From a virus: DNA of 64,000 nt. This document shows, one piece after another, positions 228 through 37,246 of this stretch. The DNA lies in IMG/VR virus record IMGVR_UViG_3300045988_149624; one strand, written 5' to 3'. The notes under the pieces were generated by a model. That model ran no database searches and was not told the DNA's origin. It saw nothing but the letters and a program-made list of their open reading frames with translations. The translations under genes and the position numbers were made by a program. Each line of letters begins with the position of its first letter. Within the stretch, counting starts at the first letter, position 1.

Positions 228-236
228 GTGATGAAT

Positions 237-14360: not shown

Positions 14361-14936
14361 ATGATTATTGGTAGCAATTTTGATTTGTCTTCAAGGTTAT
14401 ATTTAGACTCGAGACAGTTATGTGATAGTTATGCAGACCTTATAGAGAACAAAAATAATATCTTATATCCTCCCGGATTTGAAGTTTATTGTTTTAAGGA
14501 AAAAACAAAGTATTATAATGCTTGTGAAAATATAGAAGATAAACCAGTATGGAAAGAAGCAGCACGAGGTAGTATTGCAGAAGTTTTTATAGAAAGTGAT
14601 ACTATTCCGGAGAATAAAGACCTTTATTGGATTGATACAGGAACAGTAGATACTTTAGGGAATCAATCTGCTCACGAAGGAATAATTAAAGAGCTTTTAG
14701 AAACAGTTAGAAATCTTCAAAAAAGAATATTAGTTTTAGAAGAGAAAGTTGGCTCAGGAATAATTTCTCCAACAACAGGAGACTATTTACAATTAGCAGA
14801 TGGAACAAATTTACAATTAGCAGACGGAACATTTTTAGAACTATCTTCAGGAGATTCTTCGAGTAAAAAATATTTACAATTAGCAGATGGAACATTCTTA
14901 GAATTAGCAAATAATACTTTCTTAGAAATAAATTAG
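14361..14936 (+). CDS. 191-aa protein with C-terminal LQLADGT-F/N-LEL repeats
   Basis: RBS AAAGGAGAG is present. The C-terminus reads YLQLADGTNLQLADGTFLELSSGDSSSKKYLQLADGTFLELANNTFLEIN, encoded by near-identical 24-nt units at about 14784, 14809 and 14871. Confidence 0.65.
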   Translation: MIIGSNFDLSSRLYLDSRQLCDSYADLIENKNNILYPPGFEVYCFKEKTKYYNACENIEDKPVWKEAARGSIAEVFIESDTIPENKDLYWIDTGTVDTLGNQSAHEGIIKELLETVRNLQKRILVLEEKVGSGIISPTTGDYLQLADGTNLQLADGTFLELSSGDSSSKKYLQLADGTFLELANNTFLEIN

Positions 14937-14946
14937 AGGTGATAAG

Positions 14947-16860
14947 ATGACTAAATTTAATGAACTTAATAAAACTATTGTCATTAATGACACAGACTAT
15001 TTATTGTTGGGAACAAATTTAGATAGTGGATTTGAAAATAAAATAGCTAGTATAGAAACTTTAAAAAAAGCATTATTAGGAGATACTTCTAATCAATATT
15101 TAAACTTATTATCTTCTGACGGGAAGAAAGAATTTAGATTAACATTAGATGGAAATGGTAAAATGCATATTTTTCCTATAGAAGCTTATACTAGCACTCC
15201 TTATACAGAAGGACAGAATTTAGAATCCCCTTTAAAAATAGTTCCAAGTAATAAAATAGATTCGGAAAACAATAGTGGCTTAGTTATTCAACAAATATAC
15301 GGCGGTGGTTCATTAACCACAAAAGAAACAGCAGTAAGTCATAATTTTGTTGAGTTATATAATTGTAATACCGTTGATATAAATTTAAATGGTTTATATC
15401 TTTGGTATAAACCTAATGGTGGAAGTTGGAGTTCTTTAGCTTTAAGAGGAATAGTCCCTGCCGGACATTCTTTTTTAATTAGGGGTAATGCACTTTATAA
15501 TATAAATAGTGATATAGTTAGATGTAAAATAACAGAGTATGACCAAGAATGGAATATATCTTTTTCGGAAAATGGATTCACAATATATTTATGTGTAGGA
15601 GAAAAAGAACCCGAGGCAACGCCAGTTAAATATATAAAAAATGAATTAGGAGCAATAACATCTACTGACCAAAGATGGGTTGATATGCTTGGTGGTGGCG
15701 GAGCAGAAGATTCTCACACTATCGCAGTATATGAAGGCGGATATTATAATATGGGAATGAGTAGATATTGTTCTTTAAGAAGAATGAATTTTAATAATGG
15801 TAAAAATAATAGAGACGATGCAAGTATTATAGATTATCAAACTTGTGAAGTTGAAAAATTTAGACCAAGAAGTTTAGCAGACGGATATTGGAACTCAAGT
15901 GCAGAAACAATACAATTTAATAAATATAGTCCTTCAATGGTTAATATGTGTTATGGGGAAAATGGTGATACTTCAAGAACTTTTACTTTTGAAACTCCAG
16001 TAACAGATTATGATGGAATTATTAAATACAGAAAACAAGGAGAAACAAAGTGGATAAAGAAAAAAACAACTAAAGATATTGTAAATCTTTATGACCAAGT
16101 AGTTAATATTCATAGAGTAATTATACATGATTTAACTTATGGAACTTACGAATATCAACTAGGCGTAGAAGGTATGCTTACAGATATAGAAACATTTGAA
16201 ATAAAACAATATAACCAATCTAATAGCTTAAAGATGCTATGGACTACTGATGAACAGGGATTTACAGAATATGAATACAATGCAGTAAGAACAGCCCGTG
16301 ATGCTATTGAGCATTATGAATATTCAAATAGCACTCCTAATTTTGATTGTCATTTAAACACAGGCGATATTTCACAAAATGCAAACAGACCACAGGAATG
16401 GCGATACTATTATAAATATCATGAAAATAATCTTAAAACTATGCCACATATACTTAATTGCGGAAATAACGATTTAATAGATAAAAAATTTGGTACAGCT
16501 TTTGAATATTACGGCACTTTTGAAAATCAACCATTACTAAATACCTATGAACCTCATACAGAAGGAGAAAGAGCAGTTCCAATGGTTTCTAGTTATAGCT
16601 TTGATGTTGGTTTTGTACATTTTGTAGTGATTAATTCTAATACAGAATATATGTACCCAGAAGTAAATACAGATGAATTTTTAAGAAAACAAATAGAATT
16701 CTTAGATGATGATTTAACTAAGGTTGAAGCAAGAGCGACTAAACCTAGATGGGTAGTTGTTACTTGTCATTTAAGTCCTTTTACAATAGTTAGAACTAAG
16801 AGATTACAACAATGGATTCCTTATATAGAAAAACATAAAGTGGATTTTGTATTATGCGGG
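14947..16860 (+). CDS. exon 1 of a tail-module protein with lamin-tail-domain-like and metallophosphoesterase-like domains
   Basis: RBS AGAGGTGA is present. The LTD-like segment is VIQQIYGGGS...VSHNFVELYNCNTVDINLNGLYLWY...IVPAGHSFLIRG (about nt 15260-15520). MPE-like motifs are TGDISQN, CGNND and VTCHLSP. The ORF stops at TAA 16861 right after ...KVDFVLCG, in the middle of the GHxH motif. Confidence 0.75.
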
Positions 16861-18365
16861 TAATGTTGCCCTAGTTATCGAGTAATCGGTTTCAAAAAAT
16901 TACAAATTTAATTGCAGGTAATTCCTAAAGCCTTACACCACAATAACCCTGAAAAGAGGTTATGAAGGTACGAAAGTAGAAAAAACGTAAGGATAAGTAT
17001 ATGGTTAAACCCTAAGTACTTGGATATAATGATAATAAGTAAGTTATATCAAAATGGATGTTCATGCAGGTAAGATTCTAAATTTATTTATTTAAGCTCG
17101 AATAATTTTACGAGGTGAGTAAAATAGGAAAAAAATTAAATTATAATAACGTAAAAGAATATATAAATTCTCATGGTTATATATTATTAGATAATGAATA
17201 TATCAATATACATAAAAAAATGAAAATCAAATGCCCAGAAGGACATATTTTTGAAATGTCTTTTAATAATTTTAAGAAAGGACAAAGATGTTCGATTTGT
17301 TCCTTAAATAAACAATATAAATATACATATTCTCAAATTAAAAATATTTGTAAAAATAACAACTTGATACTTTTAAATGAAAAGAAAAATTTAAATATGC
17401 GAGATATAATTAAATTTAAAAACGAAAAAGGAAATATCGAACAAGTAACACTATACACTTTTGAAAGAAGATACATCAATACAAATAAATCAGCATCAAA
17501 ATCAAAATATTCTAATAAAAAACATTCTCAAGAATATATACAATCTTTGGTAAAAAAAAGAGGGTATAAGTTGTTAGAGCCATATAAAAATAAAAAAACT
17601 AAATTAAAATTGCAATGCCCTAATGGTCACTATCACGAGATTCGTTTAGATAGTTTTATAAAAGGGAGTGGATGCAAACAATGTATGATTGAGAATATGA
17701 CTAACGATGTAAAAGATGTGATTACAAATCTTCAAAAAAAAGGATTTCATTTATTATCTAAATATAAAAATAATCAAGAAAAAATTGTTTTACAATGTGA
17801 AAAAGGACATATATTTAACGCCACCTACGATAATGTAGTTAATAACAATAGTGGATGCCCTGTTTGTAATGAAAGCAAAGGAGAAAAGAATATAAGAAAA
17901 ATATTAAAAAAATATAATATTAAATATATTCCTCAATATAAATTTGATAATTGTAAATTCTATAAATGTTTGCCTTTTGATTTTTATTTGCCTGATTATA
18001 ATTGTTGTATTGAATATGACGGAATACAACATTATAAAATAATAAAGCATTTTGGAGGCTATGAAACATTTATAGATAGAAAAATAAGAGACACAGTTAA
18101 AACCAAATTCTGTGTAGACAACAATATTAAAATAATAAGAATTTCTTATTTGGAATTTAATGATATTGAAAAAATATTAAAAAATGAGCTTAAAATAAAA
18201 GAATAAGAATAAACTTCAAAGACTATCTCGCAAGAGAGTACGACAAAGTATGTCGGATAAGGTTTGCCCCTATATAGGGTGAAGAAATAGTCTAATATCC
18301 TAATGAAAGTTAGGGCGAGAGAAATTCTCGATTTATGAAGTAACGTTCATAAAAACAATATAATG
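16861..18365 (+). mobile_element. group I intron (IA-like) carrying an endonuclease ORF; boundaries +/- a few nt
   Basis: Structured non-coding arms of 254 nt and 159 nt flank an internal ORF. Hairpins with GNRA loops include ATCGA-GTAA-TCGGT, TAC-GAAA-GTA and TCTC-GCAA-GAGA. AGACTAT (18220-18226) pairs with ATAGTCT (18287-18293), resembling the P7 of the Tetrahymena intron. P7.1/P7.2-like hairpins are TCTCGCAAGAGA and CGACAAAGTATGTCG. P9-type hairpins are CCTAATGAAAGTTAGG, CGAGAGAAATTCTCG and TATGAAGTAACGTTCATA. The element ends in G at 18365, and removing it fuses ...VLCG to HNHTYSRS. Confidence 0.75.
17115..18206 (+). CDS. intron-encoded putative homing endonuclease: three zinc-ribbon repeats + PD-(D/E)XK (Vsr/DUF559-like) nuclease domain
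   Basis: Starts at GTG; this is the only start upstream of repeat 1, as the frame opens at 17106. The three repeats are GY-LL-x9-12-K-(I/L)-(K/Q)-CP-x-GH-x-(F/H)-x9-12-C-x2-C. The C-terminus is LPFDFYLPDYNCCIEYDGIQH...DRKIRDTVKTKF, typical of PD-(D/E)XK Vsr-like endonucleases. Confidence 0.7.
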   Translation: MSKIGKKLNYNNVKEYINSHGYILLDNEYINIHKKMKIKCPEGHIFEMSFNNFKKGQRCSICSLNKQYKYTYSQIKNICKNNNLILLNEKKNLNMRDIIKFKNEKGNIEQVTLYTFERRYINTNKSASKSKYSNKKHSQEYIQSLVKKRGYKLLEPYKNKKTKLKLQCPNGHYHEIRLDSFIKGSGCKQCMIENMTNDVKDVITNLQKKGFHLLSKYKNNQEKIVLQCEKGHIFNATYDNVVNNNSGCPVCNESKGEKNIRKILKKYNIKYIPQYKFDNCKFYKCLPFDFYLPDYNCCIEYDGIQHYKIIKHFGGYETFIDRKIRDTVKTKFCVDNNIKIIRISYLEFNDIEKILKNELKIKE

Positions 18366-18902
18366 CACAACCATACATACAGTAGAAGTATTCCACTATA
18401 CACAGGATATAAAGGAGCGACATATGATTCTTCTACTAGAAAGTTCACACTTGCACCATATAACAATTATGTAGATGTTGTATCTACTGGTTCTACTCAA
18501 TTAAAAATAGTAGATGAAAGTATAACAAGAACAGCTAATAAGGCTGATGGAACGTATTATATAATGTGTCAAGCGACAGGCTATAAGCAAAAGGGTAAGG
18601 AAAAAGCTATTAATTTACCTAGTGGACAAAATTTATTAAAAACTGAAAATCCAAGCTCTATACATGACAATGGTAATGGTCAACCTTGGTGGTATGCTTA
18701 TACAGGTACTCTGCCAGTACAACCAACATACATTATGGTGGACTTTGGATATGATAAAGTCACATTTAATATGTATTATATTAAAGATGTACTTACTAAA
18801 GATTTAGAAGAAAAAATTACAGTAAATGATTTTGACCCTACTAAGAATGAAAGAGTTTTATTTGATACACTTACTGTTAATTATTCAGACAGAAATAAAT
18901 AA
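18366..18902 (+). CDS. exon 2 of the LTD/metallophosphoesterase-like tail-module protein
   Basis: The frame opens at 18339 and reads HNHTYSRS from 18366. Joined to exon 1 it gives VDFVLCGHNHTYSRS, which matches purple-acid-phosphatase-type GHVHAYERS. The ATG at 18363 has no RBS. Confidence 0.7.
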   Translation, partial: HNHTYSRSIPLYTGYKGATYDSSTRKFTLAPYNNYVDVVSTGSTQLKIVDESITRTANKADGTYYIMCQATGYKQKGKEKAINLPSGQNLLKTENPSSIHDNGNGQPWWYAYTGTLPVQPTYIMVDFGYDKVTFNMYYIKDVLTKDLEEKITVNDFDPTKNERVLFDTLTVNYSDRNK

Positions 18903-18913
18903 GAGGTGATTAA

Positions 18914-21900
18914 ATGCCTACAATAAGAAAATATAATAAAGAAACAGAGAAATATAAAAGAATAGCTACCTCCGATGCGTTGGAGGTGGCTATTTTAGAC
19001 GCAGAAGGAAATTTTGAATCTGATAATGTAGAAGGTGCTTTAAGAGAATTAGGAGACGCTAAGGGGCAAATAGAAGTTAATAGAGGCATTATAGACGCTG
19101 TTAATTCTACTCTTACTGACCATATTAAAAATCACCCAAGTGGTGGGGGTGGCGGAGGCACAATGCCTACTATAAGCACCGACTGGAACGAAACTTCTAT
19201 TGACGGAGATAAAGACTTTACAATTCCTATTTATTTTACATCTCCCAATTTAGGAGAAGGTACTTTATATGTCTTAATTAATAATGTAGAAACATCTATA
19301 CAGACAATTTCTCAAGGTAACAATACTATTAAAATACCTGCTTTAGGGAGTGGTAAAAAAAGACTTTCTATTTATGTAAGAGATAGAGGACAACTTATGT
19401 CTAATCAATTAACATGGGATATTGTTTGTGGTGGTATCAAACTAACTGTAACGATGAACACAGATATAGATTATACTCTTAAAGATAGAATATTATTAAC
19501 TTACAATATAGACTGTGATTTACAAACTGATATAAATACGATTATTACTATTGACGGAACAGAATATACAGTTAAATCCAATAAAGGGTATAACTCTTAT
19601 GAAATTAAGGGTTTAACAGTAGGGGTTCATAAAGTTGAAATATATGCAACCGCTGATGTTTATTCTACTCCTTCTCAAGTATTTAATGTTATAGTTGTTG
19701 CTACAGAACAATTGTTTATAACCTCAACATTTGACACAACTAAACAATATGAAAAGGGTCAGCCTATGAATATTAATTACAGAGTCTCTATAGCAAACAC
19801 AGATTATTATACTATTAATATGTATGTTGATGATTTTGAAAAACCTATTAAGACATTATCTCAACAACCCGGAAACTACTATTGGACTTTTACTCCTGAA
19901 TTTGAGTTAGGAAAACATACTTTAAGAATAGAAGCTTATAACTCTGATAAGAGTAAAACTGCCACATTAGATTTGCCTTTTGAATTAGTTGCTTCTAGTT
20001 ATCAAGCTATGGAATATGTTAGTACAGGTCTAATAGCTTCTTTCAATGCGAAAAATAGAACTAATTCAGATGTTGACAGAGGGTATTGGGTAGACGATAT
20101 AAATGGATATATAGGAAGATTGTATAATTCAAATTATGGTACTAACGGTTGGATAGACGGAGAATTAGTATTAAATGGTAACACATATGTAGAGATTGAT
20201 ATGACTCCTTTTAGTGATAATGTAACTAGAGGATTCACTTTAGACATGGTATTTAGTGTGGAGGATATAGGTAATCCTTTAGCTAGAGTTATAGACTGCA
20301 CAAGTCTTTCTGCTCCTTATCCGGGGCTATATGTTAATCCTTATAAGGCTAATTTGGCTACTGTATCTCATAAGACAGAATTAGATATAGGGCAAGGAGA
20401 AGATATACAGATTACTTTTATGATTGATAGGGTTTCTAAATTTGGTAAGGTATTCATCAACGGAGTATGTTGTGACCCATTCCAATTATCAGATTCATCT
20501 TCTGGTAGCCAAATAATATATGAGCAAATTAAACACGAAGAAAAAATATATTTAAATAGTGAAAAAGGGACAAGTAATTTTGGCTCTTGCAAAATAAAAA
20601 GAATAATGATGTATGAAAGAGAATTATCAGACGAAGAGGTTCTTCAAAATAGAATAGCAGATATGAAAATAGAAGAGCAAGAAGAAGAATATAACAAAAA
20701 CTATAATGATGCTTATATGCCTTGTATGTACATTTATGGAGATATAAGCAATATGACTTTAACAAATAAAAAAGAAGTTAGAATAAAATATGTTTCACCT
20801 AATGCTGATTTATATGGGTCATCTTTTGAATATCCTAGATGTAAAATGTATTGGCAAGGGACTTCTTCTATTCAATATGCTAATAAGAATTTTAATATAG
20901 AACTAGGAGATAGTGACGGAAATCAAGTATTTTATACTCCTTTTAAGAATGGTATTTTAGAATATTTATTCTGTTTAAAATGTAATCAAATGGAATCTTC
21001 TAATGTTATGAATACAGGGTCTGCTATGTTTGTTAATGACAACTTATATGTAGAAAAGAATCCTGCCCAATTAAAGAATGATAAAGTTAGACAGGCTATT
21101 GAAGGTTTCCCTATACTTTTATATATAAATGATGAATTTGTCGGACTGTATGATTTCAACTTAGATAGATATAGTTATCGTTCTTATGGATATAACTTAT
21201 TTGATAAGTGTTTAGCTTATGAAGTATCAGCCAACTCTGACACAACAGCAGGTGCTTTTAATTCTTGGACTTCTTCTAGTGGTAAGACAGAACAAAATTA
21301 TTATGCTTCTGATTTTGAATGTTTATATCCTCCAAGTAGACAAAATGGTAATGACAACTTTGCAGAATTAAAAACATTAGTTGATTTCGTAAGTGGTGCA
21401 GATGAAGATTTATTTAAAGAACAGTTTGATACTTATTTTGATAGACAGTCTGTATTTAGATATTATTTATTTGTACAAGTATTTGGGGGAATAGATTCTC
21501 TGGGAAAAAATATGAAAATAGTTACATTTGATGGTATAAAATGGTATTTGCAAGTATATGACTTAGATAGTTTAATGGGGTTAGACAATACTGGTGCATT
21601 AACGTTTGATGTTGACATAGAAGTTGAAAGTGGAGTATTTAATACATCTAATTCTAAACTATGGAGTAAAATTAGACTTTATTTTGCTAATGAATTAAAA
21701 CAAGAATATATTAATATGAGAAATGGTGTATTCACACTTGAAAATATGTATAAATATTTTTACGATAATCAGATGGATAAAATACCTGTAAGATACTATA
21801 ATAAATCTACTGAATATAAATATTTAAGATTTGGTGCAAAATATTTATATGCCTGTCATGGTAATAGATATTTCCAAATAAAAAGATGGTTAAAAGAAAG

Positions 21901-24900
21901 ATTGTTATATTGTGATACTTTATTCGGATATGAACCTTCTACTTCTAATTTTGTTACTGTTCGTTGTAATAAACAAGGTAAGGTTTCGATGAACATATCG
22001 ACTTATAGTCCTATGTATTTATCTGTAAAATGGAGAGACGAAGCAGATGGCAGCGGAACACAAACATTAAAAATACCTAGAAATAAATCAGTTAAATTTA
22101 GTTATACGATTCCTACTGCTACAGATCAGGAAGTTATTATATATGGGGCAGAATACATCAAGTCTTTAGGAGATTTAAGTACCTGCAATCCAACTCACTT
22201 ACTTTTATCAAATGCTACGAGAATAAATGAGGTAATATGTAGAAACAGTTCAAAATTAGTAAATGCAGAAATAAATGGTTGCAGCTATTTACAAAAAATA
22301 GATTTTAACGGCTGTTCTAATTTAGGTAGTTTAACCAGTTATCAGGTTATGGAATTAGCTACCTGTCAAAACTTGAAATATTTAGATATAAGAGGAACAA
22401 AAATGACAGGGGTAAACTTTGATAATAATGGTGGTAACTTAGAGGAAATATATCTTCCTAAAACAATAACATCATTATACTTGAGAAACCAATATGCTTT
22501 AAAAATTGTAGGTTTGACAAGTGTTAGTTGGTATTCTCCATTTCATACAGAAGCTTTAAGTGGAGCAAGTGATATAACATCATTTACATTAATTAATTGT
22601 CCTTTAGTAGAAAGACTTACTACCCGTTCAGATATAAGTATGAGTGGATGGAATCAAACATTTTATGATTTTAATGGGAATGCAAGGAATGTGGATACAT
22701 TAGGAGATTATGAAGACGCTACTAAGTTTAGAAAGATGGCTCTTTTTGGACTAGGATTATGTAATGCAACTTCTATTCATATAGAAAACAGTATGTTATC
22801 TACTAGATATATGTCTTTTAGATTTAATTATAGACTAGAAGAATTAACATTAAAATACCTACCTAATCTTCAAGAGTTGACTATTGGAGAAACTCAAACA
22901 GGACATAGATGGAATGTAACAGATGATATGTGTGGTTCTTTTGATTTTAATAATATTAATATCACAGAATGTCCTAATATAAAAACATTTAGAATACATC
23001 AATATGATGAGAGACAACCTAAATGGTTTAATAGTGGAACTAATGTAATAGATTTAACTAAGTTTGAAAATCTTGAAACATTTACTTGTAATATTACTAC
23101 TCAAGATTTAAACACGATAATTCTTCCTTCTACATTAAAGATGATATGGATTAAGCCGATGTGTGGATTCTCTAGTACTAATTATCCTAATAATTGTTTA
23201 AAATCAAAATGCACTCTAAAGAATATATATTTTAAGGAAGACCATCCAAACGGATATGAAGGAATAGACTTTGGAAATAGGGAATTAACAGAATTATGTT
23301 TATCTGGGGTAATACAGTCAACAGGAACAATAACTGGGGTAAATACTAAAAATACTTATGTTAGTCCTGTATTTAATAATATGAATGAAAAAGAAAGAGG
23401 TTCTGAATCTTATCCTGAAGTAAAAGTCCAAGGGAAAATAGACTTATCTAATTATGATTGGACGGAAGCATACTGGTGGTTCACAAATGTTAATTTTACT
23501 TCTGATAATTTAGAATTTATTATGCCTAATGACTGGGATTATCTAATAGATACTCGCTTGAAAAGAGTAAGAGGGGTATTCTTTGATTGTACAAACCCAA
23601 ATTTTACTTGGGAATTTGCAGGTAGATTTTTTAAATTATTACAAGACAGAGATGATTTAGGAAAAACATATAAATATGCAACACTTCAAGAACAATCTTC
23701 TTATGAAGAACAGGCAGTTACAATAGAAAATAATTATGATATAGCAGATTATAACTATGGAGACACACCTTTTGTTGGTTCTAATCTTAAATACATTAGA
23801 GAATGTAATTTTAAAGGAAATGCTATAGCATATGGTACTTTCAGAAATTCAAATCTTGTAAAAGTTGGAACAATTACTTGTAGTGGCTCAAATGTATGGT
23901 GGAGTTCCGAAAGTTTATTCCAAAACAGTAAAAACTTAGAAGAAGTAGAGTGTATCAATATGACTGGAGCTAATAGTACTACAAACTGGTTTGCTAGTTG
24001 TCCTAAATTAAAAAGAGTTGGAACAGTAAATGTAAATGCTAAGAATATAAATCAAATGTATGCTTATTGTCCTCAGCTAACAGAATTAGCATTACCTACT
24101 TTAACTAATTTAGAGAGAATGAGTGGGTTTGTTAGAGGGTGCACTTCTTTAACTGAATTACATCTTAATGAAATAACAGAAAACACTCCTTTAGAATATA
24201 TGGACTGGGCATTTAGAGATTGCCCTAATTTAACTTCTGTAACTATTGGAGGAACTACTCTACCCCCAACATTGGTAACAATGGAGGGAGCGTATTATGG
24301 AGATAAAAAGCTTACAAAAGTAATTCCTTTACCTAATGATTTTAGTAATAAATGTAGTATGCGTTCTTGTTGTTATGGTTGTTCTTCATTAACAGATGAT
24401 AATATATATAAAACTCTTCCATATAATGTAAGTAATATGGATTATATTTATTATGCTTGTCATGGATTGACAAATCCGTCTATAGTAGTCAATTCTGACA
24501 GAACAAGTTCTCAATCTTGTTTTGAGGGGTGTGCAAACATAAAATCTGTTAGAGCAGAATTTAATGGTACATATTCTTATGGATTTAATAATTTCTGTAA
24601 TAACTGTGGAGAACTCACAGATGCTTATATTAAATTCCCTTATTCTCTATATTTTAATGATGATGCACAGACTTGCTCTGAAAATGGGAATATATTTGCT
24701 TATTGTAAAAAGCTTATAAACGTAGAGTTGAATATGACTAGATTAGAAAGTAAATCAGATTTTAGAGCAATGTTTAGACAGGATAAATATATAGAATCTA
24801 TAAAAGGATTTGATTTAAGCAATCTTCATAGAGATGATAGAAGACCAAATGATAACGCTTGGTATTTTACTTATGATACATCTTTTGAATTTATGAAGGA

Positions 24901-25120
24901 TTGGGTATTTGCGACAGACGAAAATGGTAATACTAAAAAATTAACAAATTCATATAAGATGTATAATTTAGAATTAACTCCTGCTGCTACTATAGAATCT
25001 CTTATGAATGGGTTAGGAACAGTACAAGCAGAAACATTAACATTAGGTCAAGCAACCTTAAATAGGCTATCGGAAGAACAAAAAGCTAATGCAGTAGCAA
25101 ATGGTTGGACTTTAGCGTAG
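18914..25120 (+). CDS. 2068-aa host-interaction protein: LamG-like + CotH-like + two leucine-rich-repeat regions
   Basis: RBS AAGAGGTGA is present, and PSGGGGGGT forms an N-terminal linker. A LamG-like block (LVLNGNTYVEIDM...GFTLDMVFSV...GKVFINGV...IMMYERELSDEEV) spans about nt 20100-20640. CotH-like motifs (KNFNIEL, FPILLYINDEFVGLYDFNLDR, FRYYLFVQVFGGIDSLGKNMKIVTFDGIKWYLQVYDLDSLMG) span about nt 20700-21630. LRR and BspA-type repeats (CxNLxxLxL, CPxLxxV, CTSLTELHL) span about nt 22030-24600. Confidence 0.8.
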   Translation: MPTIRKYNKETEKYKRIATSDALEVAILDAEGNFESDNVEGALRELGDAKGQIEVNRGIIDAVNSTLTDHIKNHPSGGGGGGTMPTISTDWNETSIDGDKDFTIPIYFTSPNLGEGTLYVLINNVETSIQTISQGNNTIKIPALGSGKKRLSIYVRDRGQLMSNQLTWDIVCGGIKLTVTMNTDIDYTLKDRILLTYNIDCDLQTDINTIITIDGTEYTVKSNKGYNSYEIKGLTVGVHKVEIYATADVYSTPSQVFNVIVVATEQLFITSTFDTTKQYEKGQPMNINYRVSIANTDYYTINMYVDDFEKPIKTLSQQPGNYYWTFTPEFELGKHTLRIEAYNSDKSKTATLDLPFELVASSYQAMEYVSTGLIASFNAKNRTNSDVDRGYWVDDINGYIGRLYNSNYGTNGWIDGELVLNGNTYVEIDMTPFSDNVTRGFTLDMVFSVEDIGNPLARVIDCTSLSAPYPGLYVNPYKANLATVSHKTELDIGQGEDIQITFMIDRVSKFGKVFINGVCCDPFQLSDSSSGSQIIYEQIKHEEKIYLNSEKGTSNFGSCKIKRIMMYERELSDEEVLQNRIADMKIEEQEEEYNKNYNDAYMPCMYIYGDISNMTLTNKKEVRIKYVSPNADLYGSSFEYPRCKMYWQGTSSIQYANKNFNIELGDSDGNQVFYTPFKNGILEYLFCLKCNQMESSNVMNTGSAMFVNDNLYVEKNPAQLKNDKVRQAIEGFPILLYINDEFVGLYDFNLDRYSYRSYGYNLFDKCLAYEVSANSDTTAGAFNSWTSSSGKTEQNYYASDFECLYPPSRQNGNDNFAELKTLVDFVSGADEDLFKEQFDTYFDRQSVFRYYLFVQVFGGIDSLGKNMKIVTFDGIKWYLQVYDLDSLMGLDNTGALTFDVDIEVESGVFNTSNSKLWSKIRLYFANELKQEYINMRNGVFTLENMYKYFYDNQMDKIPVRYYNKSTEYKYLRFGAKYLYACHGNRYFQIKRWLKERLLYCDTLFGYEPSTSNFVTVRCNKQGKVSMNISTYSPMYLSVKWRDEADGSGTQTLKIPRNKSVKFSYTIPTATDQEVIIYGAEYIKSLGDLSTCNPTHLLLSNATRINEVICRNSSKLVNAEINGCSYLQKIDFNGCSNLGSLTSYQVMELATCQNLKYLDIRGTKMTGVNFDNNGGNLEEIYLPKTITSLYLRNQYALKIVGLTSVSWYSPFHTEALSGASDITSFTLINCPLVERLTTRSDISMSGWNQTFYDFNGNARNVDTLGDYEDATKFRKMALFGLGLCNATSIHIENSMLSTRYMSFRFNYRLEELTLKYLPNLQELTIGETQTGHRWNVTDDMCGSFDFNNINITECPNIKTFRIHQYDERQPKWFNSGTNVIDLTKFENLETFTCNITTQDLNTIILPSTLKMIWIKPMCGFSSTNYPNNCLKSKCTLKNIYFKEDHPNGYEGIDFGNRELTELCLSGVIQSTGTITGVNTKNTYVSPVFNNMNEKERGSESYPEVKVQGKIDLSNYDWTEAYWWFTNVNFTSDNLEFIMPNDWDYLIDTRLKRVRGVFFDCTNPNFTWEFAGRFFKLLQDRDDLGKTYKYATLQEQSSYEEQAVTIENNYDIADYNYGDTPFVGSNLKYIRECNFKGNAIAYGTFRNSNLVKVGTITCSGSNVWWSSESLFQNSKNLEEVECINMTGANSTTNWFASCPKLKRVGTVNVNAKNINQMYAYCPQLTELALPTLTNLERMSGFVRGCTSLTELHLNEITENTPLEYMDWAFRDCPNLTSVTIGGTTLPPTLVTMEGAYYGDKKLTKVIPLPNDFSNKCSMRSCCYGCSSLTDDNIYKTLPYNVSNMDYIYYACHGLTNPSIVVNSDRTSSQSCFEGCANIKSVRAEFNGTYSYGFNNFCNNCGELTDAYIKFPYSLYFNDDAQTCSENGNIFAYCKKLINVELNMTRLESKSDFRAMFRQDKYIESIKGFDLSNLHRDDRRPNDNAWYFTYDTSFEFMKDWVFATDENGNTKKLTNSYKMYNLELTPAATIESLMNGLGTVQAETLTLGQATLNRLSEEQKANAVANGWTLA

Positions 25121-25128
25121 GTGATTAT

Positions 25129-25710
25129 ATGAATAATATAGAAATAATAGAAAAAAAAGGTTATAGAATATTAAGACCAAAAGAGGGTTATATCCTTTAT
25201 AAAGATGGAGAAATCTTTGAAGGAGATGTGATACTAGGAGTCAATGCGACTCCTAGTGCTTATTCTACTATAGAGGATGTAAATTATAAAGAAATACAAA
25301 AGAAAATTGAAGAATTAGACCCTCTTAAAGAATTAAAAGAACAGAGAATTGAGTTGAGCAAAAATAATTTAGCACAATATCTTAAAGATAATCCATTATT
25401 TTCTACTGTTAAGTATGAAGAAGGAAGATATTATAATGTGACAATGGAGAAACAACAGTTGTTAACAAGTACTTTGCTTTCATATCAGTTAGATAATATC
25501 TTTGGAACAGAATCAAACTTGAAATGGAATGACACCAAAAATGTATGCGAACCTTATTCTTTTGAACAGTTAGGGAGATTGTCTAAAGAAATAAAATTAT
25601 ATGTTGAGCCATTAGTAGAAAAACAACAACAAATGGAAGTTAATATTAGAAATTGCAAAACAGAAGAAGAAGTGTTTAGTATTAAATTAGATTTTGAAGG
25701 AGTTGATTAG
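25129..25710 (+). CDS. tail-fibre accessory/assembly-type protein (DUF4376/XkdW-like pattern)
   Basis: ATG 25129 is preferred, with AGGTGA 4 nt upstream. The C-terminal half (NLAQYLKDNPLF...LKWNDTKNVCEPYSFEQLGRLSKEIKLYVEPLVEKQQQMEVNIRNCKTEEEVFSI) follows the pattern I recall for DUF4376 fibre-associated proteins. Confidence 0.45.
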   Translation: MNNIEIIEKKGYRILRPKEGYILYKDGEIFEGDVILGVNATPSAYSTIEDVNYKEIQKKIEELDPLKELKEQRIELSKNNLAQYLKDNPLFSTVKYEEGRYYNVTMEKQQLLTSTLLSYQLDNIFGTESNLKWNDTKNVCEPYSFEQLGRLSKEIKLYVEPLVEKQQQMEVNIRNCKTEEEVFSIKLDFEGVD

Positions 25711-27371: not shown

Positions 27372-28157
27372 ATGGTATCAAAACCAAAAATGATAGAAAG
27401 TTTTATTACAAAAAATAAATATAGTAGACCCGGAACAAAACGTTCAAGAACTACTAAAATAGCATGGCATTATACTGGTGCGCATGATGTATCTGCTAAA
27501 GCAACCATGAATTACTTTAAAAACTTAGCAACAACACATACAACTTATGCAAGTTCTCACTTTGTATGTGGACTTGATGGAGAAATATATTATATAGTTC
27601 CTATGAGTGAAATAGCATATACAACTAACAGTGCAAACTATTATTCTATCGGTATAGAATGTGCAACTACTGGAACTGATGACCATTATTCAGATAAAGA
27701 ATACGTGTCTATGGTTAAATTAGGAGCTTGGTTGGCTCAATATTACGGATTAGACCCTAGAAAAGACTTTATAAGACATTATGATGTAACTAGAAAGGTA
27801 TGCCCAAGATACTTTGTTAATCATAAAGATAAATGGAATCAGTTTAAATTAGATTGCTATAATCTTAAAGAAGGTAAAATAAAAGTATCTGATATTGTGA
27901 ATTGTACTAATGGAAAAAAACATACTTCTAAAGTCCCTAGCACTACAACTAAAAAACAATATTTAAGAGTGCTTCAAGATGTTAATGTACATAGCACTCC
28001 TGACTTTAAGTCTAGTTCTGTTTGTGGTAAAGCAGAAAAAGGAGAAGCGCTTACTATTGTTAAAAAGATAGAGAGACCCGGAACAGATATGTATTTAGTG
28101 AAGGCAGGTTATTATATAACTGCTAGTAGTAAATATGTAGAAGTATTTGAGAGATAG
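27372..28157 (+). CDS. endolysin: N-acetylmuramoyl-L-alanine amidase (Amidase_2/PGRP type) + SH3-like wall-binding domain
   Basis: Amidase_2 signatures are IAWHYTGA, SSHFVCGLDGEIYYIVP, SIGIECA and IRHYDVTRKVCPRYF. The C-terminus YLRVLQDVNVHSTPDFKSSSVCGKAEKGEALTIV...YITASSKYVE is SH3b-like. Confidence 0.8.
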   Translation: MVSKPKMIESFITKNKYSRPGTKRSRTTKIAWHYTGAHDVSAKATMNYFKNLATTHTTYASSHFVCGLDGEIYYIVPMSEIAYTTNSANYYSIGIECATTGTDDHYSDKEYVSMVKLGAWLAQYYGLDPRKDFIRHYDVTRKVCPRYFVNHKDKWNQFKLDCYNLKEGKIKVSDIVNCTNGKKHTSKVPSTTTKKQYLRVLQDVNVHSTPDFKSSSVCGKAEKGEALTIVKKIERPGTDMYLVKAGYYITASSKYVEVFER

Positions 28158-28165
28158 GTGATTAA

Positions 28166-29737
28166 ATGAATAAATTAATCAAATATTTTAATGAAAATTA
28201 TGGGAAAGAATATGGAAAAATCTCTTATCCAAGAACAACAATTCAAATATATAGAGCGTATCAAGCCATAAAGAGTTACGGTATAGATGATGAAAAGTTG
28301 ATAAGTTTATTACACGACATTAAACTTCCTCAGCCTAAAACAATAGAAGAAAAAGAATTATATGCCGATTGTTTATATGATTTAGATGATAGCGAATTAT
28401 TAATGGGAGTCCCTTATACACAAAAGATAAAAATTTTGGAAAATTCAATTCCTGTAGAACAATATAATGGGAATTATGGTTATCGCTCTAATACTTTTGA
28501 TTATAATATAAAAAATTTAAATATTAAAAATCCATCACATATAGAAATAGATATTTATTATGGGGAAAATTTAAATACAGAAATAGAAGAAAGCGATTAT
28601 CATTTCAACGGAGTTTTACTTTTGAAAGAAAGTAACGATAGTACTTATGACTTTTGGTTTCCTGCGTTAGAAATAAAAAATGATGACTATGGGGATTCTT
28701 CAATATATTTAGTATTGTGGATATATAAACATGGAGGGAAAATAGCAGTAAGTCATAGACTTCATGATGATACATATATTTCTATGTTTTTTATTAAAAA
28801 AATATCTTTAAGTTTTTACGAAAATAAAGGAGGCACAATTCAAGCACCTCAAATTGGAAGCGTAGATGCCAGAGCTTTAATTAACAAAGAAGATGGATTG
28901 AGTGATTACGCCACATCTTCTAATCCTGTATTTACAGGAAAAGTAGTTCAATATAAGGATAATGCCCAATCTTATGAGGGAGGGAATGGTAGTGCTAGAT
29001 TTGGATATAGTAGTTCAGGAGAAAACAGTTTCTCAAGTAACTGGGGTTCTGCATCTGAAAAGTATAGTTTTGCAGCAAATACAGCGTGTGCTTTTGGAGA
29101 AGGTTGCTTTGCTATTGGTAAGGGCACTCATGCTTGGGGAGAGAATCAATTTGTATTTGGTTCTAATAATATATATGATAAAAAAAATAAATATATGTGT
29201 ATAGCAGGGAATGGAATAGATGCAGATAATACCAGTAATGCTTATACGTTAGACTGGAATGGTAATGCTTGGTATAAAGGTAATATAAGTATAGATGGCG
29301 CTCCAACTAATGACAAAGATTTAACTACAAAAAAATATGTAGATGATTATTTAAGTCCTTTAGTGAAAAAAGTCGGAGAAGTTACAACTCAAGTAGCACA
29401 AGAACACGTTCCAACTGCAACAACTACATATCTAAATAATATGTTTAATTTAGTTGAAATACCTATAACAAATTCTACTTTAACATTAACTTCTGCTAGA
29501 AATCAAACTCCTACTGGTGGAGTAATGGTTGATGGAACTACTATTGTATTACCTGAAATAGATTATTTTACAGAAATACATTTATTTTTTAAAGCAGATG
29601 CAAATATGAATTTAACATTACCCGATATTAAATATCAAATGACTACGGATATAGTTGGAGGTAAAATATATGAATTTATCTTTACTCATTTGAATGGATT
29701 AAATGAATGGATAGGAGGATATGTAGCTTATGTGTAG
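28166..29737 (+). CDS. 523-aa tail fibre with shared N-terminal module and YadA-head-like (Hep_Hag-type) repeats
   Basis: Family N-terminus is MNKLIKYFNENYGKEYGKISYPRTTIQIYRAYQAIKSYGIDDEKLISLLHDIKLPQPKT. It also has NPVFTGKV, the repeats GENSFSSNWGSASEKYSFAANTACAFGEGCFAIGKGTHAWGENQFVFG, and NAYTLDWNGNAWYKGNISIDGAPTNDKDLTTKKYVDD, which is shared with ORF 35945. Confidence 0.75.
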   Translation: MNKLIKYFNENYGKEYGKISYPRTTIQIYRAYQAIKSYGIDDEKLISLLHDIKLPQPKTIEEKELYADCLYDLDDSELLMGVPYTQKIKILENSIPVEQYNGNYGYRSNTFDYNIKNLNIKNPSHIEIDIYYGENLNTEIEESDYHFNGVLLLKESNDSTYDFWFPALEIKNDDYGDSSIYLVLWIYKHGGKIAVSHRLHDDTYISMFFIKKISLSFYENKGGTIQAPQIGSVDARALINKEDGLSDYATSSNPVFTGKVVQYKDNAQSYEGGNGSARFGYSSSGENSFSSNWGSASEKYSFAANTACAFGEGCFAIGKGTHAWGENQFVFGSNNIYDKKNKYMCIAGNGIDADNTSNAYTLDWNGNAWYKGNISIDGAPTNDKDLTTKKYVDDYLSPLVKKVGEVTTQVAQEHVPTATTTYLNNMFNLVEIPITNSTLTLTSARNQTPTGGVMVDGTTIVLPEIDYFTEIHLFFKADANMNLTLPDIKYQMTTDIVGGKIYEFIFTHLNGLNEWIGGYVAYV

Positions 29738-30823: not shown

Positions 30824-33800
30824 ATGAATGAATTAATAAAATATTTTAATGAAGAATATAGTAAAGAATACGGAAAGGTTTCTTATCCTAGAACTACTCT
30901 ACAAATATATAGAGTATATCAAGCTATAAAATCTTATGGAATAAATGATGATAAATTGGTTGAGTTGCTACATAACGTAAAATTACCTAAACCTAAAAAT
31001 ACAGAAGAATGGGAGTTATATGTTTATTGTTTATATAATATGGATGATAGTGAATCAGAAAGAAAGATTAAAGATATTTCGAACAAACTAGAAATACTTC
31101 CTGTAAAAAATACACATCAGGTTATCCGAGATGGAGTACCAGTTTCTCAACAAAATATAACTTTAGATGGAAATAACTATAAAGCATATATATTTAATGA
31201 CGAACAAATAACAATACCAGACAGCTTAGTATTAGAAGATTTTGAAAATAAGTTTTTAGCCATAGCTTCTCACTCTAAAGGAGTGTTAAATGCCGTCATT
31301 TCATATAATGATGGTGTAAATGATATAACAAAAGAAATAGAATTGACACGTGACGAAAATTTTACTTCAAACTATTTTGATTATAGTGACTATACTGAAT
31401 CTAGTATATTGAATATAACATTTGGATTTGACTATGGTATTAACAAATTTTTTATATACGTTTATTATATGAAACAACCTATGAAATCTCCGATTTTTTA
31501 TGAGGTGAAAAAAGTTTCACTTTCATATTCGTATATTACCAACTTACTAGATGACGATTATTTAAAAAGTATTGATTATTCTAAAATTAATAATGTCCCT
31601 TATAAGTTAACTGCTCTTGTAGAGGGTTCAACAAAAACACTAAAGACTGGGGAATATGCATCTTTATTCGATAATTTATTTATTTGGGATGCCAATAAAA
31701 TAAATGAACGATTAGATGATACAAGTGGAGTAAAAAAGAATGAATATTATGAGCATAATATAAAAGTTAAACAAAAAGATAGTGAAGGAATAGGTTACGG
31801 TCAATATATTCCAGCCGAGTCCATGTCTGAATATAAATTATTTATTAAAGCTGGTCCCGATGTTATAGTAAGGGTTTACCAACATAAAACAAAACAATTA
31901 TTAAATAAAATAAAAGATTTCCCTCTTGGAGAATACAAAGAAATTATGGTAAGAGACGGCTTAAATAGAAGTGACGGAATATTTATTGCTTTTACTGTCA
32001 AAGATGATGTAACAGATTTTTATGCTAATACTTATGTTAGTGATTTAGTTTTATGTAAATCAGATGGATTTTTAACTAAACAAGAAGTAGATAATAAAGT
32101 TGATAAAGTAGAAGGCAAAGGATTATCTACAGTAGATTTTACTACTGCTTATGAAACTAAACTTAAAGGATTGTCTAATTATAATGATACAATTATTAAA
32201 AACGATATACAAACAATTAATACACAATTAGGAGATATTGCGAACACAGGTAAATTGACAGATTTAAATACAACTGAAAAATCTAGCATTGTCGGTGCAA
32301 TAAATGAGGTTTTTCAAAATGCCAGTAATGGTAAAACTTTAATTGCTCAAGCTATTACTGGCAAAGGTGTATCAACGAGTAATACAGATACATTTCAAAC
32401 TATGGCAACTAATATAAACAGTATACAGACAGTTTCTGATGCGAGTGGCATTATATTTACTTTAAATAATAAAAAATACAAGCTATCCAAAAACGATAAA
32501 GGAGAATATATTGCCACTTTATTAGCTTATTCCGTAACAAGTAATTTAACTCACTGCACTTTAGATAATACTAATACTTCTATTGATTATGGAAATAAAT
32601 ATACTTGTAATATTTCGGTAAACAAAGGTTTTATTATAGATTCTGTCGTTATTACTATGGGTGGAACAGATGTAACCAGTACTGTTTTAAAAGGTAACAT
32701 TATTACTATAAATTCTGTTACAGGGGATGTTATTATAACTGTGAATTGTGTTGAAGAACCAGCTAACCCTGTTTATGGAAATATAAAGGCAACTCCTAAC
32801 TATACTTTTAAAATAAATGAAATTAAAGGAAAACTTGACCCCGATTTACAGGTTAGCTTAGCAACAGCTCCTAACTTAAACCAAACAATTACTATAACAA
32901 ATAATACTCCCGAATATATTACAATATCTCCTAACACTCTTACTTTTACTCCCGATAATTATTCAGTACCACAAAAAGTTAGTATTTCACCTATAAGAAA
33001 AAATAATGATTATTTAGATAGACGTGGTGAATTAGTATTAAGTAGTAAGGGGGTTACTGATTATACAGCTAAATGTACTATAATTAATACAGATAATTAC
33101 ATCCATCCCTCAAATTGTACTTTAAGTGATAAAGTACTTGATATACACGCTTATGGATTAAATAGTGTTCCTACAACATTGGAATCAAGTGTTAATAATA
33201 TTTCCTGTGCAGTTACACCAATTTCCAATGAAGGTGACGATAATGTTAGTAAAGCTACAGCTAATGGATTACAATATGTAACTATTGATGTTCCTAGTTT
33301 AAAACCATATCTTAATGAGTCTAAAGGCATAACTGCTATTTATGTTAGTATGGGGTATCCTTTTGTAGATAAGAATTTAAACTCTTATCTTAATTTGTTA
33401 GGTATTAATTCTACTAAAATGAATAATTCATCATATCTATTTGGTTATACAAAAAAACCTTCTACAAAAGGGTATGAAGCTTTAAACTCATATTTTTATA
33501 CTTCATTTAATGAAAAGACTACAAGTGCCGATTTACATTTTAATGTATTTATGTTTAATCCTTCTGATGCACCTGTCGGAATTACTTATATGATTGATGA
33601 TACTAATTATACAAGCATAGGAAGTACTGGTTGGTTTGATTATGGTAAGGATTTAACTAGCAAAATTAGTTCTTATAAAAATGTATCTAAAGAATCGAAC
33701 ACAACTTTTGTTGCATATCAAGTATATAACGGAATACTTAGTTTAGATGATATAAATACTATTAAAAATGGGATATTGGAAAATTTAGTTCCTAGTGAGG

Positions 33801-35944: not shown

Positions 35945-36874
35945 ATGAATAAACTAATTGAGTTTTTCAATGAAAAATACGGAGACAAATATGGGAAGAT
36001 TCCTTATCCAAGAACAACAATGCAGATATATAGAGTATATCAGTCTATAAAAAGTTATGGGATAAAGGATGAAGAGTTAGTTAAATTGTTACATAATATT
36101 AAATTACCTAAACCAAAATCTATAGAAGAAAAAGAGTTATATACAGATTGTTTATACAACAAAGATGATAGTGAGATGGTAATAGATACAAGTAATTTAA
36201 TTTCTAAAGAAAACCCTGTATTTACTGGTAGTATGAGTATGAATAGGAAAGAAGGGGCAACTATAGGAGAATATAGCGTTGCTATCGGGAAAACTGTTGA
36301 AGCGTCAGGAGAATGTTCTTATGCAGAAGGTAAGAATACAACTGCTAGTGGATGGAGTTCTCATGCAGAAGGAGAGGAAACGAAAGCTAAGGGGCAAACT
36401 TCCCACGCAGAAGGAGATAATTCAATCGCTGAAGGCATAAGTTCCCACGCAGAAGGCAGTTATGCAGTTGCCAGTGGAATAACTTCTCATGCAGAAGGAG
36501 AGGGAACAAAAGCTTATGGAAAATCATCTCATGCAGAAGGTAGTTTTACAACTGCCTCTTCAAATTATCAACACGTTCAGGGTAAATATAATATAGAAGA
36601 TAAAAGTAATAAATATGCCCATATAGTTGGTAATGGTAAAAGTGGTATGGAAAGAAGTAATGCACATACATTAGACTGGGAAGGTAATGGTTGGTATGCT
36701 GGTAAATTATCTCAAGAAGGTACGCCTACCGAAGATAAAGATTTAGTTACTAAAAAATATGCAGATGCTTCTTTAGAAAATAAAGTAGATAAATCTCAAT
36801 TATCATTTAATTCTGACGGAGAACTTGTTGTAACTATAGATGGAATTAGTAAAACATTCGTACCTAAAGCCTAA
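35945..36874 (+). CDS. 309-aa tail fibre with shared N-terminal module and Hep_Hag-type heptad repeats
   Basis: Family N-terminus is MNKLIEFFNEKYGDKYGKIPYPRTTMQIYRVYQSIKSYGIKDEELVKLLHNIKLPKPKS. NPVFTGSMS is followed by SSHAEGEETKAKGQTSHAEGDNSIAEGISSHAEGSYAVASGITSHAEGEGTKAYGKSSHAEG. NAHTLDWEGNGWYAGKLSQEGTPTEDKDLVTKKYAD is also present. Confidence 0.8.
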   Translation: MNKLIEFFNEKYGDKYGKIPYPRTTMQIYRVYQSIKSYGIKDEELVKLLHNIKLPKPKSIEEKELYTDCLYNKDDSEMVIDTSNLISKENPVFTGSMSMNRKEGATIGEYSVAIGKTVEASGECSYAEGKNTTASGWSSHAEGEETKAKGQTSHAEGDNSIAEGISSHAEGSYAVASGITSHAEGEGTKAYGKSSHAEGSFTTASSNYQHVQGKYNIEDKSNKYAHIVGNGKSGMERSNAHTLDWEGNGWYAGKLSQEGTPTEDKDLVTKKYADASLENKVDKSQLSFNSDGELVVTIDGISKTFVPKA

Positions 36875-37228: not shown

Positions 37229-37246
37229 ATGATATGGAGGGTTAAT

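Follow-up and report, generated by a model that had tools for sequence, protein, structure and literature searches.

What is a kinase-like domain doing in a phage tail protein? The question is raised by a giant gene in the virus record IMGVR_UViG_3300045988_149624 of IMG/VR, of which we analyzed a stretch of 64,000 nucleotides (nt; the window) from a phage of at least 97 kb. According to the open reading frame (ORF) list and its translation, the ORF at 18914-25120 on the plus strand starts with ATG and encodes 2068 amino acids (aa). A first-pass annotation had described its product as a tail-module protein combining a LamG-like lectin block, a CotH-like kinase domain and long leucine-rich repeats (LRRs), and the motifs that it quoted are all present: KNFNIEL at aa 658-664, ILLYINDEFVGLYDFNLDR at aa 734-752 and GGIDSLGKNMKIVTFDGIKWYLQVYDLDSLMG at aa 858-889. 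Phage CotH domains have been flagged in four metagenomic papers, and there are about 3,000 representatives of the present CotH subtype. Added here are a kinase centre under selection, a predicted fibre with an exchangeable tip and a clade-wide phosphoesterase companion gene.

The CotH domain was recognized both by profile and by predicted structure. The giant protein matched the Pfam family CotH (PF08757) at aa 649-958 and profile positions 5-285 of 322 (E=2.4e-10), with 40.9 bits at a gathering cut-off of 23.8; the CotH segment scanned alone scored 45.5 bits. Two overlapping AlphaFold2 models were computed from the homologue alignment. Model 1 covers aa 366-1130 (predicted local distance difference test, pLDDT, 92.1; predicted template modelling score, pTM, 0.90) and model 2 covers aa 1100-2068 (pLDDT 88.2). 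The top two PDB matches of model 1 were the structures 5JDA and 5JD9 of Bacillus cereus CotH (Foldseek E=1.7e-13, target template modelling score, TM, 0.70-0.72). Direct sequence searches of the PDB with the whole protein, with a 14-sequence family profile and with the Klebsiella phage CotH protein did not return CotH. A profile of five phage lineages, built from four family members, the giant protein among them, and from the CotH regions of gp353, Hankyphage p00, JNU_P11 and a P2-like Klebsiella prophage, reached 5JD9 with E=9.8e-5 and 24.7 bits. Thus, the CotH call withstood the checks that could have overturned it, with a significant profile match, a CotH fold and retention of the catalytic residues.

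These residues were located by hidden Markov model (HMM) alignment, in which D861 and D883 correspond to B. cereus D224 and D247 (Table 1). Bacillus subtilis CotH is inactivated by D228Q and by D251A (Freitas 2020, PMC7821199), and the spacing from D224 to D247 is 23 residues, equal to that from D228 to D251. Based on the HMM alignment and the equal spacing, we infer that D861 and D883 are the equivalents of D228 and D251 and would act as the catalytic and the metal-binding aspartate, respectively. In 119 homologues, conservation of at least 98% was found for D861, L863, G864, K865, N866, Y882, D883, D885, the stretch Q648-G-T-S-S652 and K689. Most of these residues, including D861 and N866, are invariant in the CotH proteins of phage G, Hankyphage and the Lactobacillus and Klebsiella phages, at identities of only 23-34%. 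In model 1, the succession of a helix, the D-x4-N loop, two strands and the Asp agrees with the order of the canonical kinase core. Judged from the alignments, the kinase centre is intact and under strong purifying selection. Together with the modelled fold, this argues that the CotH domain is probably a catalytically active phosphotransferase and not a passive scaffold.

The likeness to Bacillus CotH (5JD9/5JDA, PF08757) thus comprises the atypical protein-kinase-like fold, the Asp and Asn of the catalytic loop and the metal-binding Asp. In contrast, sequence identity is 11-13%, and the Bacillus protein is a stand-alone cytoplasmic enzyme of 360 aa, whereas the phage domain is one part of a 2068-aa protein, for which substrates like CotB or CotG are not evident. 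The domain is widespread: a HMMER scan of 1.84 billion cluster representatives (50% identity) yielded 3068 CotH-domain relatives at E<=1e-3, 262 of them at E<=1e-30, and among the best-scoring representatives, giant proteins predominate, in which the domain occupies about aa 600-1000. When the CotH profile was used for a second, word-indexed homologue search, only 13 fragments came back.

Full-length homologues of the giant protein were collected from 5.8 billion proteins. All 154 that were obtained are 1900-3500 aa long and carry CotH, and many add LRR_5, DUF285, LRR_EndoS or Laminin_G_3; 119-120 of them were used in the alignments. Mean identity to the homologues is highest in CotH (52%), followed by the beta-sandwich behind it (49%), the LamG-like domain (43%), the N-terminal segment (40%), the immunoglobulin (Ig)-like domains (39%) and the first LRR block (29%), and the C-terminal third is the most variable. 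While aa 1-1500 align in nearly all homologues, only 16-35% of homologue positions align past aa 1500. This pattern suggests a conserved enzymatic core with an exchangeable binding tip. A conserved proximal and an exchangeable distal part are as expected of a tail fibre or receptor-binding protein.

The domain layout is given in Table 1. The N-terminal segment is conserved with gp353 of phage G from residue 3. The region aa 366-598 is all-beta, and its Foldseek matches in the PDB are the Hc domain of botulinum neurotoxin (BoNT Hc) and trans-sialidase lectin domains; in BFVD, they are viral LamG and many 'Concanavalin A-like lectin' proteins. For aa 1096-1540, Foldseek matched Toll-like receptor (TLR) and plant LRR ectodomains, with sub-threshold LRR_4, LRR_RPS2 and LRR_EndoS hits. 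The LRR region of model 2 also matched the BspA-type proteins 4FS7 (target TM 0.57), 4FDW, 4FD0 and 4H09. It shares with these (LRR_5/DUF285) the solenoid fold and the F..C..L signature, and F/Y..C..L occurs six times in the BspA-type block (aa 1693-1928) and eight times over the whole LRR region. Unlike the BspA-type proteins, which are bacterial surface adhesins, it would form the distal tip of a phage protein. The family consensus terminates in 'KGWT'.

The tail-module setting that had been proposed is supported by the genomic context. The giant gene lies downstream of minor tail, Tal-like and tail lysin genes and upstream of an endolysin gene, and a position behind Dit/Tal-type genes is the one expected of a tail-fibre gene. 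The product further matches phrog_9915 (E=1.6e-110). Its homologues elsewhere occupy comparable slots: in Hankyphage, the gene follows those for the tape-measure protein, the hub and a minor tail protein and is the target of a diversity-generating retroelement (DGR); in the P2-like Klebsiella phage, it follows gpI and is annotated 'spore coat protein'; in Lactobacillus phage JNU_P11, a protein with a weak BppU_N match and CotH at 87 bits is encoded in the tail-fibre slot. Together, these data make it very probable that the giant protein is a tail-associated host-recognition protein.

Could the kinase instead work outside the virion, phosphorylating host proteins inside the infected cell? The T7 and 933W kinases phosphorylate host proteins in this way. 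For CotH-bearing DGR targets, host signalling, division, dormancy or sporulation have been suggested in speculation (Roux 2020, bioRxiv 10.1101/2020.04.01.020958), and the likely host of the window phage is among the spore-forming Clostridia. We nevertheless regard such a host-takeover enzyme as very improbable. The gene is part of the late module for tail and lysis, and the replication and early genes are on the other strand; the product is 2068 aa long and combines Ig, lectin and LRR modules with a hypervariable tip; the homologues sit in tail-fibre slots; and CotH proteins are found equally in phages of non-sporulating Bacteroides, Klebsiella and Lactobacillus.

The second enzyme of this locus is encoded directly upstream. 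The first-pass annotation had seen there a lamin-tail gene, ORF 14947-16863. Its lamin-tail domain (LTD) scored 27.6 bits (E=4e-6), below the cut-off of 34.3, and the ORF is not physically adjacent to the giant gene, since a homing-endonuclease insertion and the second piece of the same gene lie between them. Once the insertion is discounted, however, it is the functional neighbour. Missed in that annotation were the purple acid phosphatase (PAP)-like metallophosphoesterase identity of the product, the strictly conserved pairing with CotH and the interruption. Phage G gp352 shares 35% identity with the partner gene product (E=3e-113); NCBIfam contributed no informative match for this product.

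A Metallophos gene is located immediately upstream of the CotH giant in 10/10 contexts examined, namely in the window, its sister contigs L001-L003, phage G and six diverse homologues (L023-L028). In the last six, with 30-40% identity, it has 787-952 aa and carries Pur_ac_phosph_N/Metallophos, sometimes with LTD. No mention of a phosphoesterase-CotH pairing was found in the literature searched, and the pairing appears to be new.

In the window, the partner gene is cut exactly at its GHxH motif, between ...VDFVLCG and HNHTYSRS..., and joining the two pieces restores the motif. The 179-aa ORF at 18363-18902 opens with M-HNHTYSRS and carries on the gp352 alignment, and the joined protein, of 816 aa without the insertion, gave a Metallophos match of 35 bits across the junction (aa 454-643). 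The endonuclease ORF at 17115-18206 matches phrog_559 (HNH endonuclease, E=4.8e-73), with additional support from Pfam. Located 3' of this ORF are group I core elements, an R-like TCAAAGACTA at 18216 and an S-like AAGAAATAGTC at 18282. Because of these elements and the protein junction, the insertion at 16861-18365 is probably a group I intron. The splice sites were placed by protein alignment only, with TGCGGG joined to CACAATCAT; the base before the 5' junction is G and not the usual U. Rfam detected no group I intron in 16500-19000; the probable reason is that the RNA core is interrupted by the 1.1-kb endonuclease ORF. In sister L001, which is intact at this site, the same gene is split after residue 506, at GNND ('HILNCG'), by a related endonuclease element (L001 7770-9044). 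L024 provides a third case of a split by an endonuclease element (L024 4486-5794).

In L023, a 203-kb relative, two more large Metallophos proteins are encoded just downstream of the CotH giant (14587-20582), one of 1174 aa and one of more than 900 aa with a faint Phage_tail_C match. Metallophosphoesterase modules may be a recurrent tail component in this phage group.

How might the kinase and the phosphoesterase work on a tail? In the explanation we favour, to which we give about an even chance, the giant gene product would be a virion-borne, long modular tail fibre or baseplate-peripheral protein, with the BspA-type distal solenoid as its exchangeable host-binding tip. The LRR tip and the lectin domain would dock the protein on the host envelope, and CotH, with the partner phosphoesterase and the tail protein that bears a glycerophosphodiester-phosphodiesterase (GDPD) module, would act on the phosphate-ester chemistry of the host wall surface during adsorption. 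Putative targets are teichoic-acid-like polymers or surface proteins. GlpQ-type GDPD and PhoD/PAP-type enzymes are the two classes that B. subtilis uses to degrade wall teichoic acid. The GDPD and PAP-like enzymes encoded here correspond to these classes, which makes a teichoic-acid-directed tail plausible. Action of CotH at the host surface, as opposed to the cytoplasm, is possible, with the balance leaning somewhat against it. Still more tentative, and on our estimate unlikely, is the general form of the proposal, in which a clade of large Firmicute phages (phage G-like phages and the window phage) would carry a tail-borne two-enzyme unit that writes or erases phosphate esters on the host envelope or the virion during adsorption.

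Several points speak against the favoured explanation. A kinase depends on a nucleotide donor, and the scarcity of extracellular ATP argues against action on the host surface. D861 and D883 were equated with D228 and D251 on the basis of a weak HMM alignment (24.7 bits) and the motif spacing, and nucleotides may be bound differently, since the family-invariant K689 is matched by an Asn in B. cereus CotH. The attachment role of the N terminus is suggested by a weak match to phrog_7154 (aa 22-56), a PHROG without assigned function. In Hankyphage and in the Klebsiella and Lactobacillus phages, the CotH gene has no phosphoesterase neighbour, which indicates that the pairing is specific to the phage-G-like clade. 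Moreover, the giant protein gave no Pfam match to Laminin_G_3 (PF13385), even at E<=10, and it stayed below the thresholds of LRR_5 (PF13306) and DUF285 (PF03382), with only LRR_4 (12-15 bits) and Liste_lipo_26 (12.7 bits); NCBIfam was of no use for the LRR region. The LamG-like block and the approximately 850 aa of LRR or BspA-type repeats that had been annotated are nevertheless borne out: the jelly roll and the solenoid are present in the models, the latter over about 850-900 aa, although the matches of the protein itself are missing or sub-threshold. Its homologues fill this gap. P0003, which is 50% identical and collinear over the full length, has above cut-off Laminin_G_3 at the equivalent position (aa 414-569, 30.4 bits versus 27.6), CotH (60.4 bits) and LRR_5 (aa 1699-1819). 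LRR_5/DUF285 are above cut-off at equivalent positions in P0003, P0004 and P0021, and the Hankyphage homologue has Laminin_G_3 at 36.2 bits.

Two of these points, the absence of a nucleotide donor outside cells and the mismatch at K689, would be accounted for if the CotH fold were a non-catalytic scaffold or adhesin, serving as a rigid spacer or as a ligand-binding module. Fungal (Mucorales) CotH proteins are described as receptor-binding invasins, with GRP78 as the proposed ligand (PMC9973265). By this analogy, the phage domain could bind without catalyzing. Such a role is improbable in view of the D-x4-N and YDxD motifs, which are kept in at least 98% of the 119 homologues and across phage lineages that otherwise share so little. 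Furthermore, a pure spacer would not be expected to be the most conserved domain of the protein.

The donor problem would also be solved if CotH acted as an assembly (morphogenetic) kinase that phosphorylates virion proteins, possibly its own or neighbouring fibres, in the cytoplasm of the infected cell. The partner phosphoesterase would then reverse or edit the marks or would have a separate target in the host wall. Of this kind is the one CotH role that has been defined biochemically, the phosphorylation of the structural coat proteins CotB and CotG during assembly (PMC7821199), and both the conserved catalytic residues and the conserved kinase/phosphoesterase gene pair are compatible with it. 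On the other hand, Ser/Lys/Arg-rich repeat proteins that could serve as substrates in the manner of CotB or CotG were not noticed in the neighbourhood, and its position between lectin and LRR binding modules, with a variable tip, makes CotH look like an enzyme that faces outward. An extracellular location is common among bacterial CotH proteins, as in the cellulosomal CseP and an LTD-LTD-Fn3-CotH protein (PMC6083626). These Clostridium thermocellum proteins (CseP and Cthe_0239) resemble the present locus in associating CotH with LTD and with carbohydrate-oriented extracellular machinery; they differ in that LTD and CotH are fused and dockerin-bearing, whereas here LTD is on the separate neighbouring metallophosphoesterase. 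Overall, we rate an assembly kinase, which is argued by analogy, as rather unlikely; what keeps it in play is the main weakness of surface action, namely that no phosphate donor is obvious outside the cell.

Proteins of this general design have been seen before. The annotation had called a CotH domain on a phage host-recognition protein unexpected, which was overstated: the same architecture is given in four papers, several phage proteins in UniProt are already labelled CotH, and BFVD names phage proteins 'Spore coat protein H kinase fold', 'CotH kinase protein' and 'Spore coat protein-like protein', some of them from crAss-like phages. Among DGR targets, 13 phage-linked proteins were reported to carry CotH and Laminin_G_3 motifs at a length of about 2000 aa (Wu 2018, PMC5758913), and a 2284-aa viral target was modelled with a CotH-like kinase domain (Roux 2020). 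Phage CotH fused to hypervariable C-type lectins was described as 'currently unstudied' (Benler 2021, PMC8008677), and Macadangdang 2024 (bioRxiv 10.1101/2024.11.15.621889) described proteins longer than 2000 aa in which CotH active-site motifs occur together with carbohydrate-binding motifs and LRRs.

The giant protein shares with these DGR targets (Hankyphage p00; Wu category f1; Roux PC_00012; Macadangdang domain group 3) a size above 2000 aa, LamG-CotH homology and the tail-fibre position. The homology extends from LamG through CotH and the beta-sandwich to the first LRRs (24% identity over aa 372-1235, E=8e-38). In contrast, the DGR targets end in a C-type-lectin variable region rewritten by the DGR, whereas the giant protein ends in BspA-type LRRs and a cap. 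The hosts differ as well (Bacteroides versus Firmicutes), and Hankyphage lacks an upstream metallophosphoesterase gene. Within the 64-kb window, no direct repeat of at least 45 nt involving 18914-25120 was found, and no reverse transcriptase was present among the larger ORFs scanned. A reading of the giant gene as a DGR target was rejected, given that the window contains no template/variable repeat pair and the protein no C-type-lectin end. The giant protein is thus a member of a non-DGR, phage-G-like branch of a known, functionally unexplored kind.

The closest isolate is Bacillus phage G. Over aa 3-1235, identity to its gp353 (2055 aa) is 29% (E=4e-161), and gp353 was also the best structural match in BFVD (E=6e-63, root mean square deviation 2.7 Å). 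The same two-gene order is found there, with gp352 ('metallophosphoesterase') directly upstream of gp353. Differences are that gp352 is uninterrupted, whereas the window gene is split by the endonuclease insertion, and that the C-terminal halves of the giant proteins diverge. A literature search on gp353 returned nothing, and the protein is deposited simply as 'gp353'. The pair gp352/gp353 offers a cultivable model in which the CotH/phosphoesterase hypothesis can be addressed, and a vague annotation becomes a testable proposal of phosphotransfer at the phage-host interface or in tail assembly. If the tail-borne two-enzyme unit exists, phage entry would include a virion-borne phosphorylation step for which there is no characterized precedent. 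Confirmation of phosphotransfer at the interface or in assembly would add an enzymatic class to phage receptor-binding proteins, beside depolymerases and esterases, and would help explain the many extracellular bacterial CotH proteins.

Table 1. Coordinates of the giant CotH gene, its domains and motifs, the split partner gene and neighbouring tail and lysis genes in the window
Feature	Position	Strand	Support or remark
Minor tail protein gene	228-1961		Upstream of the giant gene
Gene for Tal-like 1802-aa protein with GDPD module	1974-7382		phrog_2204
Tail lysin gene, 1291 aa	7570-11445		SLT + NlpC/P60, weak SH3 match; upstream of the giant gene
Partner gene, piece 1 (aa 1-638, ends ...VDFVLCG)	14947..16860	+	LTD + Pur_ac_phosph_N + Metallophos (Pfam)
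Intervening sequence, 1505 nt, probable group I intron	16861..18365	+	HNH/CapR/DUF4379 homing-endonuclease ORF 17115-18206
Partner gene, piece 2 (C-terminal remainder, HNHTYSRS start)	18366..18902	+	Aligns to gp352 residues 736-858
Giant tail-module gene	18914..25120	+	Stop codon included; ORF list, translation
N-terminal segment, aa 1-85, Gly run at its end (19168)	18914..19168	+	Presumed virion-attachment region
About three Ig-like beta domains, aa 86-365	19169..20008	+	Sub-threshold TIG, CE2_N, Big_13; aligned in 119/119 homologues
Concanavalin A (ConA)/LamG-like lectin jelly roll and helical linker, aa 366-598	20009..20707	+	Model pLDDT >90, Foldseek
CotH protein-kinase-like domain, aa 599-1010	20708..21943	+	Pfam, Foldseek, profile search
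Catalytic loop D861-S-L-G-K-N866 (D-x4-N)	21494..21511	+	Aligns to B. cereus D224-GFVH-N229
Y882-D883-L-D885 motif	21557..21568	+	Aligns to B. cereus W-D247-Y-D249; D883 is the putative metal-binding Asp
Beta-sandwich after CotH, aa 1011-1095	21944..22198	+	DSSP strands, model residues 648-732
First LRR solenoid, aa 1096-1540	22199..23533	+	Periodic short strands, model 2
Helical insert between LRR blocks, aa 1541-1600	23534..23713	+	Helices, model 2 residues 442-501
BspA-type LRR block, aa 1601-2016, variable distal part	23714..24961	+	pLDDT 93-98 over aa 1600-2000
C-terminal alpha/beta cap, aa 2017-2068, conserved ..NGWT.. at end	24962..25117	+	Helices, model 2 residues 925-963
Small downstream gene, about 193 aa	25129..25710	+	phrog_1348 'tail fiber protein', E=4.5e-5
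Amidase endolysin gene	27372-28157		Downstream of the giant gene, as are further fibre-like genes

The window has a GC content of about 28%. A late module on the plus strand (about 0.2-42 kb) is followed by a replication module on the minus strand. The late genes are arranged in the order minor tail protein, Tal-like GDPD protein, tail lysin, several small genes, phosphoesterase, CotH giant, several genes and endolysin, and the same order is found in L001-L003, which are near-identical contigs (97% identity in the giant protein). Beyond the CotH/phosphoesterase pair, the tail thus encodes several wall-degrading and phosphoester-cleaving activities (GDPD, NlpC/P60, SLT). The small gene behind the giant gene possibly encodes a fibre-associated or assembly protein. 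A mechanically called ORF, 25105-25710, opens at a TTG overlapping the 3' end of the giant gene; the true start is probably the ATG at 25129, since the L001 orthologue has 193 aa and is called from past the stop codon of the giant gene.

The DNA polymerase (DnaE) is closest to that of large Clostridioides difficile phages (45.6%), and the endolysin is closest to that of a Terrisporobacter phage. These relatives make a Gram-positive, Clostridia/Peptostreptococcaceae-like host likely. The phage is probably a large, siphovirus-like phage of a low-GC Clostridia host. Host labels from metagenome-assembled genomes (Melainabacteria, Clostridia, Bacilli) were judged unreliable, because phage contigs are often mis-binned. 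A ParM/ALP-like partition protein is encoded at 37229-38167 (phrog_691; ALP_N in a sister contig), adjoining the tail and lysis module. This gene and the DnaE, which is nearest to that of the 130-kb C. difficile phages LIBA6276 and LIBA2945, hint that the phage may live as a plasmid-like prophage.

Other genes of the late module contain repeated elements. An N-terminal module of about 75 aa (MNxLIxYFNExYxKEYGKxxYPRTTxQIYRxYQxIKSYGI...) is shared by three genes, of 523, 1671 and 309 aa, at 28166-28397, 30824-31055 and 35945-36176, with 75-77% DNA identity among them. A fourth gene, of 265 aa, has no more than the first 13 residues of the module in common with them (first approximately 40 nt, from 25711). 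These genes look like a set of alternative proteins, possibly fibres, with one attachment or adaptor module. A sister phage has a 436-aa protein in place of the 1671-aa one. Tandem in-frame repeats were found at 36315-36540, in gene 35945-36874 (42-nt, 14-aa units of the 'SHAEG' type), and at 14760-14930, at the end of gene 14361-14936 (24-nt, 8-aa units 'YLQLADGT'); both are typical of fibrous phage proteins.

On the minus strand, between 44562 and 62807, eight copies of a repeat of about 45-64 nt are located upstream of genes. Its reverse complement contains TTGACA, a 17-nt spacer and TATAAT, a perfect promoter of the sigma-A/sigma-70 type. The repeats are presumably the early or middle promoter set of the phage.

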